Positions 2,804-15,090 of a DNA stretch of 64,000 nucleotides are shown piece after piece. The stretch is taken from positions 982,554 to 1,046,553 of the forward strand of contig CAVUFX010000006.1 of the NCBI GenBank assembly GCA_963740935.1, written 5' to 3'. The DNA is from an uncultured Actinomycetota bacterium. GTDB taxonomy: Bacteria > Actinomycetota > Actinomycetes > Propionibacteriales > Nocardioidaceae. The notes beneath the pieces were generated by a model. That model was given only the letters and a program-made list of their open reading frames with translations. It had not been told where the DNA came from and did not search any database. The position numbers and the translations under genes are program-made. Numbering within the stretch: position 1 is the stretch's first letter; every line of letters starts with the position of its first letter.

Positions 2804-3316
2804 TCAGAGCAGACCCTTGACGTACGCCGCCTGGCCGAGGTGCTGCAGGCAGTCGCCGATCACGCTGACGAGCCGGACACCGGCCGTGACCGGCGGGTCC
2901 CAGGCGTCGTCGACGACCCGGTCGAGCTCCTGCGGCCCGGCGCCCGTCGCGGGATCGAGGCGGCGCAGGTAGGACAGCGTCCGTTCGTGGACGGCGGCGT
3001 GGTAGGCCACCAGCAGGTCGAGGTCGTCGACCCGCACCGCATCGACCTCCTCGGGGCCGTGCCCGTAGCCGAAGTCCACGAGGTCGAGCGGCAGGTCGAA
3101 CCGCGACGCCCAGCCCACCCACGCCTGCTCGTCGCCCGCGAGGCCGGCCACGTGGTCGTCCTGCACCCGGGCGGTGTGCCAGAGCAGCCACACGATCGGG
3201 TTGCCGCGGTCCAGCGGGCGGCGGTGGGCCGTCTCGAGGTCGAGGCCCTCGACGACGTCCACGACGAGCTCGTGGATGCGCCCGACGTGGTCGACGAGGA
3301 GCGCGTGGGTGTCCAT
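2804..3316 (-). CDS. DinB-superfamily / mycothiol transferase-like protein (DUF664-like)
   Basis: NPIVWLLWHTARVQDDH ... VRLVSVIGDCLQHLGQAAYVKG; own -10 (TAGCCT) 7 nt before ATG 3316. The ORF track wrongly fuses it to the upstream protease. Confidence 0.8.
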   Translation of the reverse strand: MDTHALLVDHVGRIHELVVDVVEGLDLETAHRRPLDRGNPIVWLLWHTARVQDDHVAGLAGDEQAWVGWASRFDLPLDLVDFGYGHGPEEVDAVRVDDLDLLVAYHAAVHERTLSYLRRLDPATGAGPQELDRVVDDAWDPPVTAGVRLVSVIGDCLQHLGQAAYVKGLL

Positions 3317-3357
3317 GTCCTCGAGGCTACGTGGGGGCTCGGTGAGGTGGTCCGGAC

Positions 3358-5735
3358 TCACGGCGTCGCCGTGGACCCGGTGGTCCCCGCACCCGCCCCG
3401 GTCCCGTCGGGGGCGGTCCCGGTGGACGGGGAGGTCGTCGCCGCGGGGGACGGCGCGGGGGCCGGCTTCCCGGTGGTGCCGCCCGTCGGGGTGGCGGTGG
3501 GCGAGGTAGGGCGAGGAGGGCGACGAGGTCCCCGGTGCACCCGGGGCGGGCGACGACGTGGTGCTGGGGGAGGTGGAGGTGGTGGCGGGCGACGGCGACG
3601 GGGCGGTGCTGGCGGCGGTCGCGTCGGCGACCGGCGGCGCGCTGCCGAGGATGTCGACGATCTCGGCCTTGAAGCCCTCGAGCCGTGCCGCGACCTCCGC
3701 GAGCGGGTAGGAGGTGATGGTCCGGCCGAGCTCGATCAGCCGGCCCCACACCTCGCCGAGGGCGAGCAGCTGCTCCTCGCCCGGCTCGCTGCCCACCGAG
3801 AGGACCAGCTGGTTGGCGATGGCAGCGGTGATGCAGCGGTAGCAGTCGTAGTTGGCGGCGACGGCGAGGTTCTGCGGCACGATGACGCGCGCGTCGTCCA
3901 TCACCAGGACGACCTGGAAGGCCACCGCGACGGTCACGCAGCGGGAGCACGAGGCGTACGCGCGGGCCTCGTTGACCTGCAGCACCTCGTCGCCCTCGGC
4001 CCACACCAGGGCGAACGCGACGTCGTAGGAGACGCTGTCGTCGCGGGTGTTGACGGCCAGGGCCTGGTTGTCGCCCTCGGACGGCGGGAGCGGCCGGTCG
4101 AACGGGAACACCCAGGGCTCCTCGGCGCCGTCGCCCCCGGTCGCAGCGCCGTCCGCCCCGTCGGTGGGGACGAGCACCATCGCGAGCCGCGGCTCCGCCC
4201 TGGTGGGCAACCGCTCGCCCTTCGCGAAGGTCGCGGCCAGGGGGTCGGAGCCGGACAGGCGCCGCTCGGCGGCGGCACCTGTCACCGAGGCCGAGGCGGC
4301 CGGGGCGGCCTCGACGGCCGGGCCCGCCGCGGCGCCGGGCAGGGCCGCGGTCAGCAGGCCCTTCTCGTCGGGTCCGACGGGGCGGTAGGCGCCCGGGCGC
4401 GGGGCCCAGGCGAAGGACAGGAAGACCGCCACGGTGGCCACCAGCGCCACGGCGGCGACCCGGCGGGTGACCGAGCCGCGGCTCCAGGCCACCAGACCGG
4501 TGCCCCACCGCAGCACGAGGCGACCGAGGATCATCGCGCCGGCCACGACGGGGAGGACCACGGCCAGCACCTGGACCACCTGCGCCGCGACGTCGATCGG
4601 CTCGCCCCGGTCCCAGGCGCCGCTGACGGCCGAGGTGCCCTCGCCCAGCGCGGCCCAGGCGGAGCCGACCAGCCGGGGGAAGACCTTCACGAGCGTGAGC
4701 AGCATGAAGGCCATCAGCGGCACGGTGACGAGCACCCAGGCCGTGATCACGACGCGGGCCCAGGGCTTCAGGACGCGGTTCTCCTCGTCGCGCCAGCGGT
4801 GGGGCAGCAGCCCCAGGAGCGTGGGCCGGATGCGCTGGTAGAGGTCCGGGACGCCGGTGAGGTCGGCGAGGACGTGGTAGCCGTCGAAGCGCAGCAGCGG
4901 CATCAGCTGCTGCACCATCTGGAGGACCTGCGTCGCGACGAGGAGGAGCAGGGCGTCCCAGCCGGTGGCCCACCAGCCGACGAAGGTGAGCACCACCACG
5001 ACCGCGTTGAAGTAGAGCCCGCCCAGGTCGGTGCGCAGCCGACCGCCTCGCGGCAGCCGGTAGCTGTCGGTCACGTCGGTGTAGAAGGCGGGCCACACCA
5101 GGTAGATGCCGGCACCGATGACTCCCGGCACGGCGCCGCCGTAGCGGGCGGCGGCCGCGTGGCCGAACTCGTGGAACCCGCCCGAGAGCACGGTCACCAC
5201 GAACACGAGCAGGAGCAGGTGGGGACGCTGGAAGGCGTCGTACGCCGCCGGGGCCAGGCCGTGCCGGAAGAAGACCCAGCCGGTGACGGCCAGGAACGCC
5301 AGCACCACCGCGGCCGTCACGCCCGGGCGGAACAGGAACCGGAACGGGTCGGTGATCCTGCGTGTCGCCGCCGGGTCGGTGACCTTGAACCGCATCCTCA
5401 GGCCCAGCAGCGGGATCGGACCGCTTCAGGGCGGGTTCGCTCCCGTCGGCCAGCTTGAGCAGGCCGAGCGGTCGCAGCTGCTGGTCGACCAGCGTGGCGA
5501 CGACGTCCGGCGTCACCTCGCGGCGTACCGCCTCCCGGACGCGTGCGGCCACCTCCTCGGGGCTGCGGTGCCCGTCGATGGCGTCGAGGACGGCGTACAG
5601 CAGGGGGGTGAGCTGGAGCGTCTGGCCGTCGCCGCGCCTGACCAGCGCCGGTGGGGTCCGGTAGCCGGACCCCACCATGGTGCCGAGGAGCTGGAGGCCG
5701 TCGGCGCGCGCCGGCGCGTCGACGAGCGCGGTCAC
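3358..5735 (-). CDS. M50 (site-2-type) intramembrane zinc metalloprotease with N-terminal PqqD/RRE-like domain, C-terminal CxxC beta-domain and S/T/P tail; two apparent +1 frameshifts (~5413, ~3510)
   Basis: HEFGH (5159-5173), IYLVWPAFYTDVTDSY, PLLRFDGY; N-terminus LTPLLYAVLDAIDGHRSPEEVAARV...LRPLGLL resembles the PqqD winged helix. Frames join as SDP-LLGLRMRF and SSP-TSPTATP...stop 3358 if one base is removed at each site. Confidence 0.8.
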
Positions 5736-6714
5736 GGTGCGGTGGTGCTCGTGCCCTGGTCGGCGGTGCCGGACGCCGCCTCGGTGCCGTCGGCCGAGGC
5801 CGTGTCGGTGTCCGTCGGCTCGGTCGAGCCCTGGTCGATGGCCGAGGTCTGCTCCGAGGTCGCCTCGGCCGAGCCGGTGACCGACTGGGTGATGATCGCG
5901 TCCTGCTGGGCCAGGGCCGTGGCCTCGGAGTTCTCCGAGAGGATGTTCGCCGCCACCGAGGCGTCGATCGGGGCCGCGACGTTGGCGTTGGCCGCGACCG
6001 CACCGTTGATCGGGGCCGCCAGGTCGGCGTCCAGGTCGACGTTGACGTCCACGTTGAGCAGGTCGCCCTCGAGCAGGTCGCCGGTGTCGAGCTGGTCCAG
6101 GGGGTCGGTGACGCCGTCGCCGACCCCGCCCACCTGGCCGACGAGGTTGCCGGCGTCGTCGAGCACCTGGCCGGTGAGCGGGTCGAGCGACCCCACGACG
6201 TTGCCCGCGGTGTCGACCACGTCGCCGGTCGCACCGTCGAGCACGCCGACGACGTTGCCCGCGGAGTCGAGCACCTGGGTGCCGTCGACGGGGCCGGCAG
6301 CAGCGGCGGTGGCGGCGTCCGCGGCGTCGGGCGGCCGGCGGTCGCGTCGTCGACCGCGCCGGGCGTCCCGGTCGTGCCGGGCGTGACGGTGTCGGACTGG
6401 TCGATGGTGCTGTCCTGGATCCCGGTCGCGGACGCGTCGGCGTCGATGGTCTGCGTGATCTGCACGCCCTGGTCGGCCAACGCCTGGGACGTCGAGCCGT
6501 CGGAGAGCAGGTTGGCGCTCACGGCGGCGTCGATGGGCGCGGCCACGTTGGCGTTCAGCGCGACGGCGAGGTCGATGGGCGCGGCGCCGTCGATGGCGAG
6601 GTCCACGTCGGCGGCGAGGTCGAGGATCGAGACGACCTCCTTGTCCGGAAGCGCCGTCACCCCCTCGGAGGCGAGGTCCTCGGCGGTGATGGGGGCGTAC
6701 TCGTCGGTGCTCAT
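5732..6714 (-). CDS. Acidic Asn/Gln-ladder repeat protein with leader-like N-terminus (about 327 aa after repairing a 1-nt deletion at ~6335)
   Basis: ATG 6714 with GAGAGGAAG RBS; MSTDEYAPITAEDLASEGVTALPDKEVVS, then two 77-aa repeats; the stop overlaps the protease start (GTGA). Confidence 0.75.
5831..6627 (-). repeat. Two colinear 77-aa repeats (6397-6627 and 5831-6061) flanking three ~18-aa D-x-AGN-V/L-VG repeats (6123-6280)
   Basis: Manual ungapped alignment gives 43/77 identical residues; the core NANVAAPIDA is identical in both copies. Confidence 0.9.
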
Positions 6715-6919
6715 GGTGCTTCCTCTCCCTGTCCCGCCCGACGTGTGATGCCGAGCGGGAGACGATGTCATCCCGGCGCCGTGTCCGGCCGCTGCGTGTC
6801 CTGGAGGAGACGCGTCGACCGGTGGGTGATGACGCCGGTGCGGCGTGTCTACCCGACCGGACCGGGATCCACACCCGATTCCCAGGTTCCGGGACGGTGC
6901 CGGCCTGGTAAGGCGAGCC

Positions 6920-12840: not shown

Positions 12841-13341
12841 GCAGCGTGGACCTCGACAGCCTCTACCAGGAGATCATCCTGGACCACTACCGCAACCCGC
12901 ACCACGCGGGCCTGCGCGACCCGTTCGAGTCCGAGGTGCACCACGTCAACCCGACGTGCGGCGACGAGATCACGCTGCGGGTGCACCTGGAGGGCGCGCC
13001 CGGCAGCGAGACCGTCTCCGACGTGTCCTACGACGCCGAGGGCTGCTCGATCAGCCAGGCGGCCGCGTCCGTGATGGCCGACCTGGTCATCGGCCAGCAG
13101 GTCGACGAGGCGCTGCGCAAGCACCAGGCGTTCCTGGAGCTGATGCAGTCCCGCGGCAGCGATCGAGCCCGACGAGGAGGTGCTGGAGGACGGCATCGCC
13201 TTCGCCGGCGTCTCGAAGTTCCCGGCGCGCGTGAAGTGCGCCCTGCTGGGCTGGATGGCCTTCAAGGACGCGACCTCGACCATCCTGGCCGAGTCCGCCC
13301 CGAGCACGAACCGGACCACCATCTCCGAGGAGAAGACATGA
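12837..13341 (+). CDS. sufU: SufU/NifU scaffold, interrupted by an apparent +1 frameshift at ~13159
   Basis: LYQEIILDHYRNP, NPTCGD, GCSISQA in one frame; EPDEEVLEDGIAFAGVSKFPARVKCALLGW in the next frame, ending TGA 13339-13341. Confidence 0.9.
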
Positions 13342-13715
13342 CCGCCGACCACAGCGACCTGCCCGACGTGCCCGAGGCCACCGGCTCCGGTGGCGCCGGC
13401 ACGACGACCGTCCACAAGGACGACGTCGTCGAGGCCATGAAGGACGTCGTCGACCCCGAGCTCGGCATCAACGTCGTCGACCTGGGCCTGGTCTACGACG
13501 TCCACATCGACGACGCGTCGGCCGCCGTGCTCGACATGACGCTGACCTCCGCGGCCTGCCCGCTGACCGACGTCATCCAGGACCAGACCAACCAGGCGCT
13601 GGAGGGTCTCGTCACCGACGTGACCATCAACTGGGTCTGGATGCCGCCGTGGGGCCCGGACAAGATCACCGAGGACGGCCGCGAGCAGCTGCGCGCCCTC
13701 GGCTTCAACGTCTGA
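13338..13715 (+). CDS. sufT: Metal-sulfur cluster biosynthesis protein (DUF59/SufT)
   Basis: DVVDPELGINVVDLGLVY, MTLTSAACPL, WMPPWGP. Confidence 0.9.
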   Translation: MTADHSDLPDVPEATGSGGAGTTTVHKDDVVEAMKDVVDPELGINVVDLGLVYDVHIDDASAAVLDMTLTSAACPLTDVIQDQTNQALEGLVTDVTINWVWMPPWGPDKITEDGREQLRALGFNV

Positions 13716-13754
13716 GCCGGGACCGCCGCGCGGCGTGAGGGCTAGTTTGGCCCC

Positions 13755-14453
13755 ATGACGCACTCGCAGCCGACCATCGCCACCCCCGACGGCGAGATGC
13801 CGGCCCACCTGTGGCTGCCCGAGGCGGGCACGGGTCCGGGCCTGGTGCTGCTCCAGGAGATCTTCGGCATCAGCCGCTACGTCGAGTCGCGCGCCCAGGA
13901 CCTGGCCGACCTGGGGTACGTCGTGCTGGCGCCCGAGCTCTACTGGCGGCTCGGGGAGGCCTCCGTCCCCGACGGGCCGGAGGCCCTGGACACGGCCATG
14001 GCCCTGGCCGGGCGCCTCGACTGGGAGGCGGCCGTGCGTGACTCCCGGACCGCGCTCGACGCGCTCCGGCAGCGGCCCGAGGTGACCGGTGGGGTGGGCG
14101 TGCTGGGGTTCTGCCTGGGCGGTGGCCTGGCGTTCAACGTGGCCGCGCTGGGCTCGCCGGACGTGCTGGTGAGCTACTACGGCTCGAGCGTGCCCGAGCT
14201 GCTGGACCTCGCGCCCCTCGTCACCGCGCCCTCGTTGCACCACTACGGCCTGGCCGACTCCTACATCCCCCGGGAGACGGTCGAGCACGTGCGCTCGGTG
14301 CTCGGCGACGGTGCCGACGTCACCTTCGAGGTCTACGAGGGCGCCGACCACGCCTTCGACAACCCCGACTTCCCCCTGCACCACCCCGATGCGTCGGCGC
14401 GGGCGTGGGACCGCACCGCCGCGTTCCTGGCGCAGCGGCTGCCCGCGGCGTGA
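13755..14453 (+). CDS. Dienelactone hydrolase family protein
   Basis: LQEIFG, GFCLGG nucleophile motif, YEGADHAF. Confidence 0.9.
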   Translation: MTHSQPTIATPDGEMPAHLWLPEAGTGPGLVLLQEIFGISRYVESRAQDLADLGYVVLAPELYWRLGEASVPDGPEALDTAMALAGRLDWEAAVRDSRTALDALRQRPEVTGGVGVLGFCLGGGLAFNVAALGSPDVLVSYYGSSVPELLDLAPLVTAPSLHHYGLADSYIPRETVEHVRSVLGDGADVTFEVYEGADHAFDNPDFPLHHPDASARAWDRTAAFLAQRLPAA

Positions 14454-15070
14454 GCGGGGCCGCCGGCGAGGTCCTGGTCCCGCCCGCCCGGCTGCCGCGC
14501 TGGACCGAGAACTTCACCGGCCGCCACGGCGCGACCGGGCTCGCGGTCGTGGACGGTGCGCTCACCGGCACTGCCGAGGACGGGTCCGACTTCGTGGCCC
14601 GGCTGCCCCTCGACGCGGCGTACGCCGGGCCGGCCGACCCCGCGGCGCTGGCGGCGGCGTGCGAGCCACCGGCCTCCTGGGGCGTGCTGCTGGTGCGCAA
14701 GGGCGGCTTCGCGGTGGCGCGGCTGGAGGGCGACCGCCTGGTCGCCTCCAAGACCGGCAGCCGGCACGTGCAGGGCCGCACCAAGGCCGGCGGCCAGAGC
14801 CAGCAGCGGTTCGCCCGCCGCCGCGACAACCAGGCGCGGGCGGCGTACGACGCGGCCGCCGACCACGCCGTGCGGGTGCTCGACGACGTCCGGATGCTGG
14901 TGACCGGGGGTGACCACGACGCTGTCGCCGCCGTGCTGGCCGACCGCCGGCTCGCCGGGGTGAGGGTGGTGGGGCCGTGGCTGGCGGTGCCGGACCCACG
15001 CCGCGCGGTGCTGGAGCAGGCCGTGGCGGACGCCCAGGCGGTCCGCGTGACGGTCCGCAACCGCGGCTGA
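14450..15070 (+). CDS. Actinobacterial VLRF1 (Vms1-like eRF1 superfamily) protein
   Basis: LLVRKGGFAVA, SKTGSRHVQGRTKAGGQSQQRFARRRDNQA, LVTGGD; GTG overlaps the upstream stop. Confidence 0.85.
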   Translation: MSGAAGEVLVPPARLPRWTENFTGRHGATGLAVVDGALTGTAEDGSDFVARLPLDAAYAGPADPAALAAACEPPASWGVLLVRKGGFAVARLEGDRLVASKTGSRHVQGRTKAGGQSQQRFARRRDNQARAAYDAAADHAVRVLDDVRMLVTGGDHDAVAAVLADRRLAGVRVVGPWLAVPDPRRAVLEQAVADAQAVRVTVRNRG

Positions 15071-15090
15071 CCCCGACCCCGCGCGCCGGA

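Follow-up and report, generated by a model that had tools for sequence, protein, structure and literature searches.

A two-gene unit of soil actinobacteria encoding a leader-tagged acidic protein and a membrane protease with a predicted leader-binding domain

In the current study, we describe a real and hitherto undescribed two-gene unit, present in hundreds of soil actinobacteria, in which a very acidic protein with a peptide-style leader (G1) is encoded next to a membrane protease (G2) that carries a predicted leader-binding domain inside the cell and a cysteine-containing domain outside it. The best reading of the data is that G1 undergoes leader-guided processing and that its product acts outside the membrane, although this reading is derived from sequence and predicted structure alone. 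The unit lies on the minus strand of a 64,000-nucleotide stretch of DNA (termed the window) from an uncultured member of the Nocardioidaceae (contig CAVUFX010000006.1).

Results

Gene organisation and sequence integrity

The features described in the initial annotation were all confirmed at their positions, and its observation holds. The unit is composed of the following elements, all on the minus strand:

5732..6714 (-), G1, a 327-aa polyanionic precursor protein consisting of leader, module N, beta-hairpin repeat linker, module C and acidic tail
6628..6714 (-), G1 leader, aa 1-29 (MSTDEYAPITAEDLASEGVTALPDKEVVS), with the conserved motif ALPDKE at 6637-6654, which holds the only Lys of the protein
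6394..6645 (-), G1 module N, approximately 85 aa (...AAPIDLAVALNANVAAPIDAAVSANLLS...QITQTIDADASATGIQDSTIDQS)
6333..6333 (-), frame break 1, 1 nt missing relative to the intact allele
6110..6292 (-), G1 central GNVVG-type beta-hairpin repeats, a variable-length spacer across the family
5828..6082 (-), G1 module C (GDLLEGDLLNVDVNVDLDADLAAPINGAVAANANVAAPIDASVAANILS...)
3358..5735 (-), G2, RRE-like domain, M50/site-2 protease core, seventh transmembrane helix, extracytoplasmic domain with two CxxC motifs and S/T/P tail, approximately 795 aa
5436..5708 (-), G2 N-terminal RRE/PqqD-like domain, predicted to be cytoplasmic
5412..5412 (-), frame break 2, an extra C (CC to CCC)
4403..5323 (-), G2 membrane core with seven TM segments, HEFGH at 5159-5173 and RFDGY at 4877-4891
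3644..4117 (-), G2 extracytoplasmic domain, three beta repeats of approximately 30 aa, two of them with CxxC (CSRC at 3938-3949 and CYRC at 3833-3844), followed by a helical hairpin; an in-frame 3-nt difference lies at 4116
3361..3643 (-), G2 S/T/P-rich tail, holding frame break 3 near 3507
2807..3361 (-), downstream mycothiol transferase (DinB/MST) gene, whose GTG overlaps the G2 stop as GTGA

G1 starts with an ATG at 6714, preceded by GGGAGAGGAAG, and ends with a TGA at 5734-5732, while the GTG of G2 at 5735 overlaps the G1 stop as GTGA (5732-5735) and its stop is located at 3360-3358. The downstream gene was identified by tblastn and by a profile match (NF047843, 213 bits against a cut-off of 170), yet it is a lineage-specific neighbour which is not conserved next to G2 elsewhere and which is not part of the conserved unit.

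In the window both genes are frameshifted, and three frame repairs are needed between them. A contig of 99.58% identity (L001) carries intact genes of 327 and 795 aa, the differences being -1 nt at 6333, +1 at 5412, -3 at 4116 and -8 at 3507. Soil-metagenome contigs carry the in-frame state at 5412, and at 3508 they carry an allele that is in frame with L001; near 3507 the window has 8 nt fewer than L001 and 1 nt more than this in-frame soil allele. Since L001 carries both genes intact and the window also has a frameshift in sufU near 13160, the three indels, although real in the window, are most likely assembly errors. A search for source reads found none, the best run holding 45% of the words, while a GC3 frame plot was too coarse to count frameshifts across the whole window. 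A scan for promoters and terminators gave nothing useful in this DNA of 73-79% GC.

Features of G1

The repaired G1 has a pI of 4.05, and the intact allele contains 56 D/E residues, a single Lys and no Arg, His, Cys, Phe or Trp; across the family the median number of K/R residues after the leader is zero. The maximum 19-aa hydropathy is 1.41, and neither a signal peptide nor a twin-arginine motif was found. As a practical consequence of the single Lys and the absence of Arg, standard tryptic proteomics would miss this protein.

The leader is nearly invariant across the family, though in a divergent subfamily it is separated from the first module by a long linker. The two modules are paralogous, and matched the module HMM in the window with E values of 1.8e-39 (module N) and 2.4e-41 (module C). 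The linker between them varies from approximately 20 to approximately 280 aa; its only Pfam hits were to DUF3659/Bflower_2 and were below threshold. In the AF2 model of a homologue (P0004) the linker repeats reached a pLDDT of >90, while the modules were given no confident fold. A Foldseek search of the PDB with the whole G1 model, which is multi-domain with low-confidence parts, returned nothing significant (best E 0.67), and PDB sequence and profile searches returned no hit. G1 belongs to a family of >3386 clusters at 90% identity, all unnamed, and of 500 clusters at 50% identity in 1.84e9 proteins.

Features of G2

The membrane core of G2 carries the hallmarks of an M50/site-2 metalloprotease, as HEFGH lies within TM2 and the second motif (RFDGY of LLRFDGY), which carries the Asp metal ligand, follows at the cytoplasmic end of a later TM helix. 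H188, E189, H192 and D284 were invariant in 70 sequences, as were G285 and Y286. In contrast, no curated M50 model was matched above threshold, since there was no hit to Pfam PF02163 at E<=1 and the NCBIfam M50 subfamily models matched only below their cut-offs. Foldseek analysis of the whole G2 model, likewise multi-domain with low-confidence parts, gave no significant hit (best E 1.6; site-2 protease MjS2P, 3b4r, E 2.5).

The N-terminal domain has an RRE-type b3-a3 (winged-helix) topology in the AF2 model (E15-19, E30-33, E39-42, H44-52, H59-70, H76-87; pLDDT 77-91). The daptide RRE-M50 profile NF041824 aligns with it from model position 17-19, whereas PqqD (PF05402) was matched in 10 of 30 members with a best E of 0.018, below the gathering score. 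PDB sequence and profile searches with the RRE domain and with whole G2 gave no hit. The RRE assignment thus rests on a predicted fold and on sub-threshold or indirect profile matches.

Hydropathy and K/R distribution predict an N-in/C-out topology for G2. The four Cys of the C-terminal domain were invariant in the sequences examined, and this domain, which matched its HMM in the window at E 3e-106, corresponds to no Pfam or NCBIfam family; AF2 gave no confident fold for its beta part. Stand-alone homologues of the domain carry Sec signal peptides or signal anchors, so that it lies outside the cytoplasm. The initial annotation had described the C-terminal domain of G2 as matching G1, but this amounts to a weak, motif-level resemblance only (hhalign E 0.004-0.005, probability 7-8%; shuffle P 0.005-0.02), and homology is not claimed. 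A PADLOC search for anti-phage defence systems returned no match for G2 or for two G1 homologues.

Co-occurrence and sister loci

Co-occurrence of the two genes, which had been set beforehand as a test of their association, was borne out, as a two-module G1 was located directly upstream of G2 in 79 of 79 testable loci, on the same strand and with a gap of 0-50 nt or a 4-nt overlap. These loci are distributed across Nocardioidaceae, Micrococcaceae, Mycobacteriaceae, Intrasporangiaceae, Microbacteriaceae and others. No other neighbour was conserved in 80 loci: the next most frequent family occurs in 12 of 80 and is an antisense artefact, followed by assorted housekeeping genes, and no conserved tailoring enzyme, radical-SAM epimerase or ABC exporter was found. 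A single contig of 3975 nt, from a run presumed to be RNA, spans both genes of an Arthrobacter homologue.

Related (sister) RRE-M50 genes follow short precursors, and 54 of 69 sister loci have short ORFs with an ELLPxRE leader upstream of the protease; the G1 N-terminus carries the same motif, E-(A/L)-L-P-(D/E)-(K/R). The cores of some of these precursors (L146_1, L146_2 and L110_0, from the metagenome set) hit the G1 module HMM at E 7e-13 to 3e-11, while HMM scoring of two Streptomyces plasmid peptides against G1 was not significant, although the best alignments fall on the leader. In two loci (L129 and L131) the CxxC domain is part of a three-gene version composed of a G1-like gene, a secreted CxxC protein and an RRE-M50 gene. 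The CxxC domain accompanies N/Q-type (G1-type) cores in 15 of 22 loci, against 2 of 43 for other cores (Fisher P = 8e-8, not corrected for phylogeny).

Discussion

Based on these findings, we propose that G1 and G2 form a leader-dependent maturation pair of the RRE/site-2-protease type, an explanation which we consider about as likely as not. In this view, G1 is a ribosomal precursor with a leader of approximately 25 aa of the ELLPxR type (here ALPDKE), followed by two copies of a conserved Ala/Asn/Asp/Gln-rich core joined by a variable beta-hairpin spacer. The cytoplasmic RRE of G2 would bind the leader, and the M50 active site, at the inner face of the membrane, would cut shortly after the motif, thereby removing the only basic residue of the protein. 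The fully anionic product would then act on the outer side of the membrane together with the extracytoplasmic CxxC domain, which in this lineage is fused to the protease and in others is a separate secreted or anchored protein. Because the cores are nearly invariant across genera, the product is more likely a conserved envelope component than an antibiotic. The analysis establishes the architecture, the strict gene pairing, the shared leader motif, the homology of the cores to short precursors and the outside location of the CxxC domain, whereas leader binding, the cleavage site, export and the role of the CxxC domain are inferred, without experimental data on cleavage, localisation or function. 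Against this explanation, no exporter is conserved, and site-2 proteases are not known to translocate proteins of 200-500 aa; export by an M50 protease has only been proposed, for the small peptide EpeX.

The interpretation in the initial annotation, namely that RiPP-style leader recognition and cleavage releases a large structural subunit that polymerises at the cell surface, is partly supported. The obligate pairing, the RRE-type predicted fold, the leader motif and the lack of conserved tailoring enzymes agree with it, and action outside the membrane is newly favoured by the extracytoplasmic CxxC domain and its specific link to G1-type cores. On present evidence there is no support for polymerisation into a fibre, for export by G2 itself or for the C-terminal domain as a template. 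Furthermore, the RRE-M50 architecture is not new, being known from daptide clusters (10.1101/2023.03.08.531785).

Among the alternatives, an unmodified bacteriocin-like or signalling peptide system, in which G1 would be a polyprotein cut into two peptides of approximately 45-85 aa and the extracytoplasmic CxxC protein an immunity or receptor component, is unlikely but survives best. Sister loci encode 2-4 tandem short precursors with the same leader and a single core, a typical bacteriocin or RiPP layout, while other sister clades have hypervariable cores behind a conserved leader. A membrane-anchored extracellular partner fits the pattern of immunity proteins, and module C keeps a leader-proximal segment (K/E-G-D-L-L-N-V-D-V, compare K-E-V-V-S-I-L-D-L). 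However, the N/Q-type cores are almost identical across families of Actinomycetota, unlike arms-race peptides, and the anionic, uncharged-tail peptides lack the cationic or amphipathic character usual for membrane-active bacteriocins. In addition, no histidine kinase or ABC exporter is conserved next to the G2-type loci, and the linker in G1 is a confidently folded repeat in the model rather than a disposable spacer.

The possibility that the G1 product polymerises into a surface fibre or mesh, with the CxxC domain as membrane anchor or template and two modules per chain allowing head-to-tail assembly, is neither supported nor excluded, and we regard it as somewhat less likely still. It is compatible with nearly invariant modules that are rich in alternating small, hydrophobic and Asn/Gln residues and lack a confident monomer fold, with the presence of two modules on a structured spacer, with the outside location of the CxxC domain and with the weak motif match between modules and CxxC repeats. 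Some sister-clade cores are rich in Gly, Asn and hydrophobic residues and appear chaplin-like. Conversely, there is no evidence of polymerisation, a net charge of about -55 disfavours self-association without counter-ions, the match to the C-terminal domain is not significant by hhalign probability, sister systems use single cores of 40 aa, and no Pfam match to chaplin, curli or other amyloid families was found. A more far-reaching, and equally doubtful, form of this idea is a Sec-independent, leader-guided route in which a site-2-protease-family enzyme would hold the only basic residue of a polyanionic protein on the inside, clip it off and pass the rest across the membrane, where a dedicated CxxC domain would template or anchor its assembly into a conserved surface polymer of non-streptomycete actinobacteria; the short-precursor sister loci would be the peptide-sized version of the same pathway.

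Regulated intramembrane proteolysis, in which the outside domain would sense a cue, G2 would clip the pro-sequence of cytoplasmic G1 and mature G1 would act inside the cell, appears improbable. G1 indeed has no export signal, M50 proteases with N-in topology cleave cytoplasmic or membrane-peripheral pro-proteins, as established for SpoIVFB, and the extracytoplasmic domain could be a sensor. Yet G1 has no DNA-binding or sigma-like features and no known domain, the short 40-aa cores of sister loci are unlikely intracellular effectors, and the CxxC domain tracks the type of precursor core rather than the protease clade, which argues for direct contact with the core rather than an unrelated signal. 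Finally, decay of the pair into pseudogenes in this genome is very unlikely, for although four of the five window-specific indels in 15.7 kb fall inside the 3.4-kb unit, each frameshift is +/-1 nt relative to an in-frame natural allele, the window also breaks sufU (part of the suf Fe-S cluster assembly operon), L001 shows a similar number of its own indels in other genes, and only 6 substitutions occur in the unit.

RRE-fused intramembrane proteases are so far tied to one characterised peptide class, the daptides, and this study reveals a much larger uncurated set, with at least 445 candidate relatives in species-representative genomes, at least 414 in metagenomes and more than 4,700 protein clusters. 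Their partners share one leader motif, and one branch has turned the precursor into a protein of 200-500 aa and recruited an extracytoplasmic cysteine domain, sometimes by gene fusion. Literature searches on RREs with site-2 proteases, M50 proteases in RiPP systems, RRE-Finder with M50 proteases, and daptides found no description of this family. If the product is an envelope component, it would be an unrecognised, widely conserved feature of Nocardioides, Arthrobacter, Mycolicibacterium and relatives, and an example of RiPP-style leader logic applied to a protein.

Comparison with known systems

The closest counterpart is the daptide leader peptidase MpaP/DapP, an RRE fused to an intramembrane site-2 protease which acts with MpaA precursors, MpaP being described as an RRE-dependent intramembrane leader peptidase. 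It likewise has an N-terminal RRE followed by an M50 core, it represents the best profile match for G2 (NF041824, E 1e-27 to 1e-33 over RRE plus core), and its precursor gene lies directly upstream with a short acidic leader motif containing E-L and P (ELExMEAP versus E(A/L)LP(D/E)(K/R)). However, G2 scores 95.9 bits and four other members 102-115 bits against the equivalog cut-off of 300, no MpaB/C/D/M-type tailoring genes or ABC transporters were found, the precursor is a two-module protein of 200-500 aa that ends in Pro or Gln rather than a peptide of approximately 50 aa ending in Thr, and G2 adds the extracytoplasmic CxxC domain.

The epipeptide M50 proteases YydH/EpeP/LiaK are also intramembrane proteases in a small precursor operon, with EpeP proposed both to cleave and to export its product, and they provide the second-best profile match for G2 (NF058609, E 1e-9). 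The score is nevertheless 38.4 bits against a cut-off of 225, the alignment covers only G2 167-295 and thus not the RRE-like N-domain, there is no match over the extracytoplasmic domain and no radical-SAM epimerase, and the precursor is different. In the SpoIVFB/pro-sigma-K system, an M50 protease with a cytoplasmic N-terminus removes an N-terminal pro-sequence of about 20 aa from a protein that has no signal peptide, but SpoIVFB has a C-terminal CBS domain, no RRE and no outside domain, and its substrate is a sigma factor. In lasso-peptide B1/B2 systems an RRE delivers the leader to a dedicated protease (see reference 19 in PMC12710340), which is however a soluble cysteine protease, while the products are small modified peptides and a cyclase is required. 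Resemblance to the nucleator-dependent surface polymers (curli CsgA/CsgB; chaplins) is by analogy only, in that they share Asn/Gln/Ala-rich repeat units and a membrane-proximal partner with related repeats would resemble CsgB; no sequence or profile match was found, those subunits use Sec signal peptides, no assembly has been shown for G1, and G1 is polyanionic.

Gene organisation and sequence integrity

The DNA under study has a G+C content of 72-79%, and as a result long spurious ORFs occur in all frames, including very long ORFs of up to 872 aa lying antisense to the genes of interest (among others at 2840-5458 and 5651-6748 on the plus strand), which are products of the high G+C content and not genes. 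Three-frame translation of the minus strand revealed two real genes, here termed G1 and G2, whose features and immediate context are as follows:

6714 to 5732, minus strand: G1, with an ATG start at 6714 behind a GGGAGAGGAAG ribosome-binding site and a TGA stop at 5734-5732
5735 to 3358, minus strand: G2, with a GTG start at 5735-5733 that overlaps the G1 stop as GTGA (5732-5735) and a TGA stop at 3360-3358
6333, minus strand: frame change required to read through G1
5412 and about 3507, minus strand: frame changes required to read through G2
6640-6642, minus strand: codon of K25, the single Lys of G1
2807-3361, minus strand: mycothiol transferase gene (MST_Rv0443 family, 213 bits), the GTG of which overlaps the G2 stop as GTGA
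12843-13335, plus strand: sufU/NifU-like Fe-S scaffold gene, split between two frames near 13160

The repaired products are 327 aa (G1) and 791 aa (G2), and only one such unit is present in the 64-kb window. The observation made in the initial annotation, i.e. two translationally coupled genes encoding an acidic repeat protein and an M50-type protease, was upheld, and all of its coordinates proved to be exact.

The frame changes are probably assembly errors. The repaired G2 has a 99%-identical intact relative of 795 aa (P0121), which is located on a 3.48-Mb metagenome contig, and the region retrieved from that contig (locus L001) holds intact 327-aa and 795-aa genes with the same 4-nt overlap. 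The window is 99.58% identical to L001 over 15.7 kb, while the window-specific differences in the unit are -1 nt at 6333, +1 C at 5412, -3 nt (in frame) at 4116 and -8 nt at 3507. Soil-metagenome contigs show the state without the extra C at 5412, whereas at 3508 they show an allele that is 1 nt shorter than the window and in frame with L001. Indel errors of the window are not confined to the unit, since sufU is likewise broken by one extra C relative to L001, a likely assembly error. Conversely, L001 carries its own indels in other genes, which at L001 660-2575 (corresponding to window 13161-15078) break a dienelactone hydrolase gene and an Fe-S assembly protein gene that are intact in the window. 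Both sequences therefore look like noisy assemblies, and real pseudogenisation is unlikely. The organism is a Nocardioides close to N. aurantiacus, at about 94.5-95% nucleotide identity to locus L002.

Sequence features of G2

In an alignment of 70 full-length relatives of G2, residues H188, E189, H192, D284, G285 and Y286 are invariant, as are the four cysteines C597, C600, C632 and C635. No hit to G2 was obtained in Pfam, while a search of NCBIfam returned the daptide intramembrane metalloprotease model with an E value of 2.7e-27, corresponding to 95.9 bits against an equivalog cut-off of 300 and covering G2 residues 30-351 and model positions 19-344. The YydH/LiaK model was matched with an E value of 1e-9, and four other family members behaved in the same way.

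The AF2 model of P0121 shows a b3-a3 domain at residues 10-100 (pLDDT 77-91), which is the RRE/PqqD topology, followed by the helical membrane core, a low-confidence beta region, a confident helical hairpin at residues 654-698 and a disordered tail. PqqD is the commonest Pfam match of the N-terminal domain, although it remains below threshold and was seen in 10 of 30 members (best E value 0.018), while PDB sequence searches and Foldseek gave nothing significant. Hydropathy analysis identified seven TM segments, with basic residues being concentrated in the N-terminal region and in the loops TM2-3, TM4-5 and TM6-7. This distribution predicts an N-in/C-out topology with HEFGH and RFDGY at the cytoplasmic ends of TM2 and TM4, respectively, and the C-terminal part of approximately 350 aa should therefore lie outside the membrane.

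Sequence features of G1

The G1 family is large, with more than 3386 clusters at 90% identity, all of which are named 'hypothetical' where a source names them, apart from one evidently spurious JGI label. It is also compact, with 500 clusters at 50% identity among 1.84e9 proteins. Members share the N-terminal motif (L/P)(T/S)xEELxxEGxTALPDKEVVS and two paralogous modules of approximately 85 aa, built around AAPIxxAVAxNANVAAPIDAAVxANxLS ... QxxxIxQ ... QDSxIDQ, which are separated by a linker of between approximately 20 and 280 aa and followed by an optional acidic tail.

In the intact allele only 15 amino acid types are used: there is one Lys (K25, in the leader motif) and no Arg, His, Cys, Phe or Trp, and the pI is 4.05, while family-wide the median number of K/R residues after the leader is zero. 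Tryptic proteomics would consequently give essentially no usable peptides, which may be why the family has gone unnoticed. G1 has no hydrophobic N-terminus. AF2 modelling of the homologue P0004 folded the central GNVVG repeats confidently as beta-hairpins (pLDDT >90), yet it gave no confident fold for the modules, and no PDB or Foldseek matches were found. In a divergent subfamily (P0256, P0273 and P0276) the leader, GLSPxELEAExxEALPERAxMS, is separated from the first module by a long linker, and the leader is therefore a unit of its own. This subfamily is also followed by a G2 of 818 aa, which is 45% identical over the RRE-like and M50 regions and possesses the 2xCxxC domain and a Pro/Thr/Glu-rich tail.

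Co-occurrence of G1 and G2

A scan of one genome per species identified 445 candidate relatives of G2, of which the best 80 loci were retained. These derive from Nocardioides/Marmoricola, Terrabacter, Arthrobacter/Pseudarthrobacter, Mycolicibacterium/Mycobacterium, Pedococcus, Phycicoccus, Leifsonia and Geodermatophilaceae, the remainder being Actinomycetota MAGs and four MAG contigs labelled Chloroflexota (L038, L054, L062 and L075). The latter carry the G1-G2 cassette at about 52% identity, similar to actinobacterial copies, which could reflect horizontal transfer or mis-binning.

In 79 of the 79 loci with upstream sequence, a gene with exactly two module hits lies directly upstream on the same strand. 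The GTGA/ATGA overlap was seen in 18 loci, while elsewhere the gap is short. No other gene family occurs in more than 12 of the 80 loci, the neighbours being unrelated housekeeping genes. The downstream mycothiol transferase gene is not next to G2 in other genera and is not part of the conserved unit, although in the lineage of the window three genes may be translationally coupled. In a run guessed to be RNA from an Arthrobacter-like organism, one contig of 3975 nt (locus L043, 5018-8926) spans G1, G2 and about 570 nt beyond, with zero depth on both flanks. This suggests a discrete, well-expressed transcript, although it represents only weak support for co-transcription.

Related loci with short precursors

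Two Streptomyces plasmids were found to encode RRE-M50 proteins that are about 40% identical to G2 residues 8-409 and that have TM7 and a Pro/Ser/Thr tail but no CxxC domain. The small ORFs located just upstream begin with MNTDQLDAETAELLPGREALGKF... and MTAVNFEELNKLAGELLPERAVLS....

A metagenome scan yielded 414 relatives, of which 80 loci were retained. Of the 69 loci with at least 400 nt of upstream sequence, 54 have one to three short ORFs (55-100 aa) with the leader ...(Q)(E/D)LE(L/A)E(T/H/S)AELLP(S/A/G/D)RE(T/A)L followed by very diverse cores, and none of these short precursors matches a Pfam or NCBIfam model. The metagenome loci include a large sister class (L103, L106, L107, L111-L116 and L119-L165) in which the RRE-M50 genes are preceded by short ORFs with the near-invariant leader MQ(E/D)LELE(T/H)AELLP(S/A)RETL and hypervariable cores that are Cys/Pro-rich, Trp-rich or Gly/Asn-rich; an XRE-type HTH gene lies nearby in 29 loci and a LysM-TM protein in 21. 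No curated family covers the precursors of this class.

Some clades have 2-4 tandem precursors such as MSQLQKAGLSTEELEAQQGEQLPDREQMSLINANVAAPINAAIALNVLSDGSVAYANAQQTAPISQSNLPPPA, the cores of which match the G1 module HMM with E values of 1e-8 to 1e-13. G1 is therefore an ELLPxR-type leader joined to two expanded copies of a core that elsewhere exists as a peptide of approximately 40 aa.

The CxxC domain

An HMM of the G2 C-terminal domain hit 23 of the 80 sister loci. In some loci the domain forms the C-terminal part of the protease ORF, while in others it is a separate gene, either downstream or divergent upstream. Some of the stand-alone proteins begin with a Sec signal peptide, for example MRKFLIALAALVAVALPSGVPVAAQA|GGDNAALAINTRDG..., whereas others begin with a basic segment, one TM helix and an S/T/P linker, placing the domain outside the cytoplasm. 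Loci L129 and L131 show a three-gene version consisting of a two-module G1-like protein, a secreted CxxC protein and then an RRE-M50 protein without that domain. The G2 of the window is thus a fusion of two proteins that are inferred to work together elsewhere.

The domain is present in 15 of 22 loci with N/Q-type cores, several of the seven negatives being truncated contigs, as compared with 2 of 43 loci with other leader peptides (Fisher P = 8e-8, uncorrected for phylogeny). It has no Pfam or NCBIfam family. Its similarity to the G1 modules (VPQNLAVAANYDCYRCITAAIANQLVLS against APIDLAVALNANVAAPIDAAVSANLLS) is weak, with hhalign E values of 0.004-0.005 at a probability of 7-8% and shuffle P values of 0.005-0.02.

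Proposed mechanism

The best supported reading is that G2 is an RRE-dependent intramembrane leader peptidase and that G1 is its substrate. This reading rests on homology to the daptide enzyme, which its discoverers describe as removing the leader, on the strict gene pairing, on the shared leader motif and on the homology of the G1 cores to short precursors. While the pairing, the leader motif and the core homology are direct results of the sequence comparisons, binding of the leader, its cleavage and the passage of the product across the membrane are inferences. Cleavage would occur a few residues after ALPDKE, by analogy with daptide cleavage, which follows directly after ELExMEAP. The product would reach the outer face, because a dedicated extracytoplasmic partner tracks the core type. 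The lack of basic residues after the leader is compatible with membrane-potential-assisted passage of acidic segments, although this is solely an inference from the positive-inside rule, and for a protein of this size a route of passage would have to be assumed. An export role for an M50 protease has only been proposed, for EpeP and its small epipeptide product EpeX.

We consider this overall model about as likely as not. On present evidence the product may be a polymer, a pair of peptides or something else. A peptide system in which the extracytoplasmic partner provides immunity or acts as a receptor is possible but doubtful. The interpretation offered in the initial annotation, namely that leader recognition and cleavage release a structural subunit that polymerises at the cell surface, is partly supported, in that the leader-guided part agrees with our reading, whereas the fibre itself remains unlikely. 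Signalling of the pro-sigma-K type appears less likely still, and a true pseudogene pair is the least likely of these possibilities.

Comparison with known systems

The architecture of an RRE fused to a site-2 protease next to its precursor is already known from daptides. G2 nevertheless fails the daptide and epipeptide equivalog cut-offs, and the defining partner genes are absent. The leader motif, the conserved N/Q core, the protein-sized two-core precursor and the extracytoplasmic CxxC partner are not covered by Pfam, NCBIfam or PADLOC, nor do they appear in the literature that we could search.
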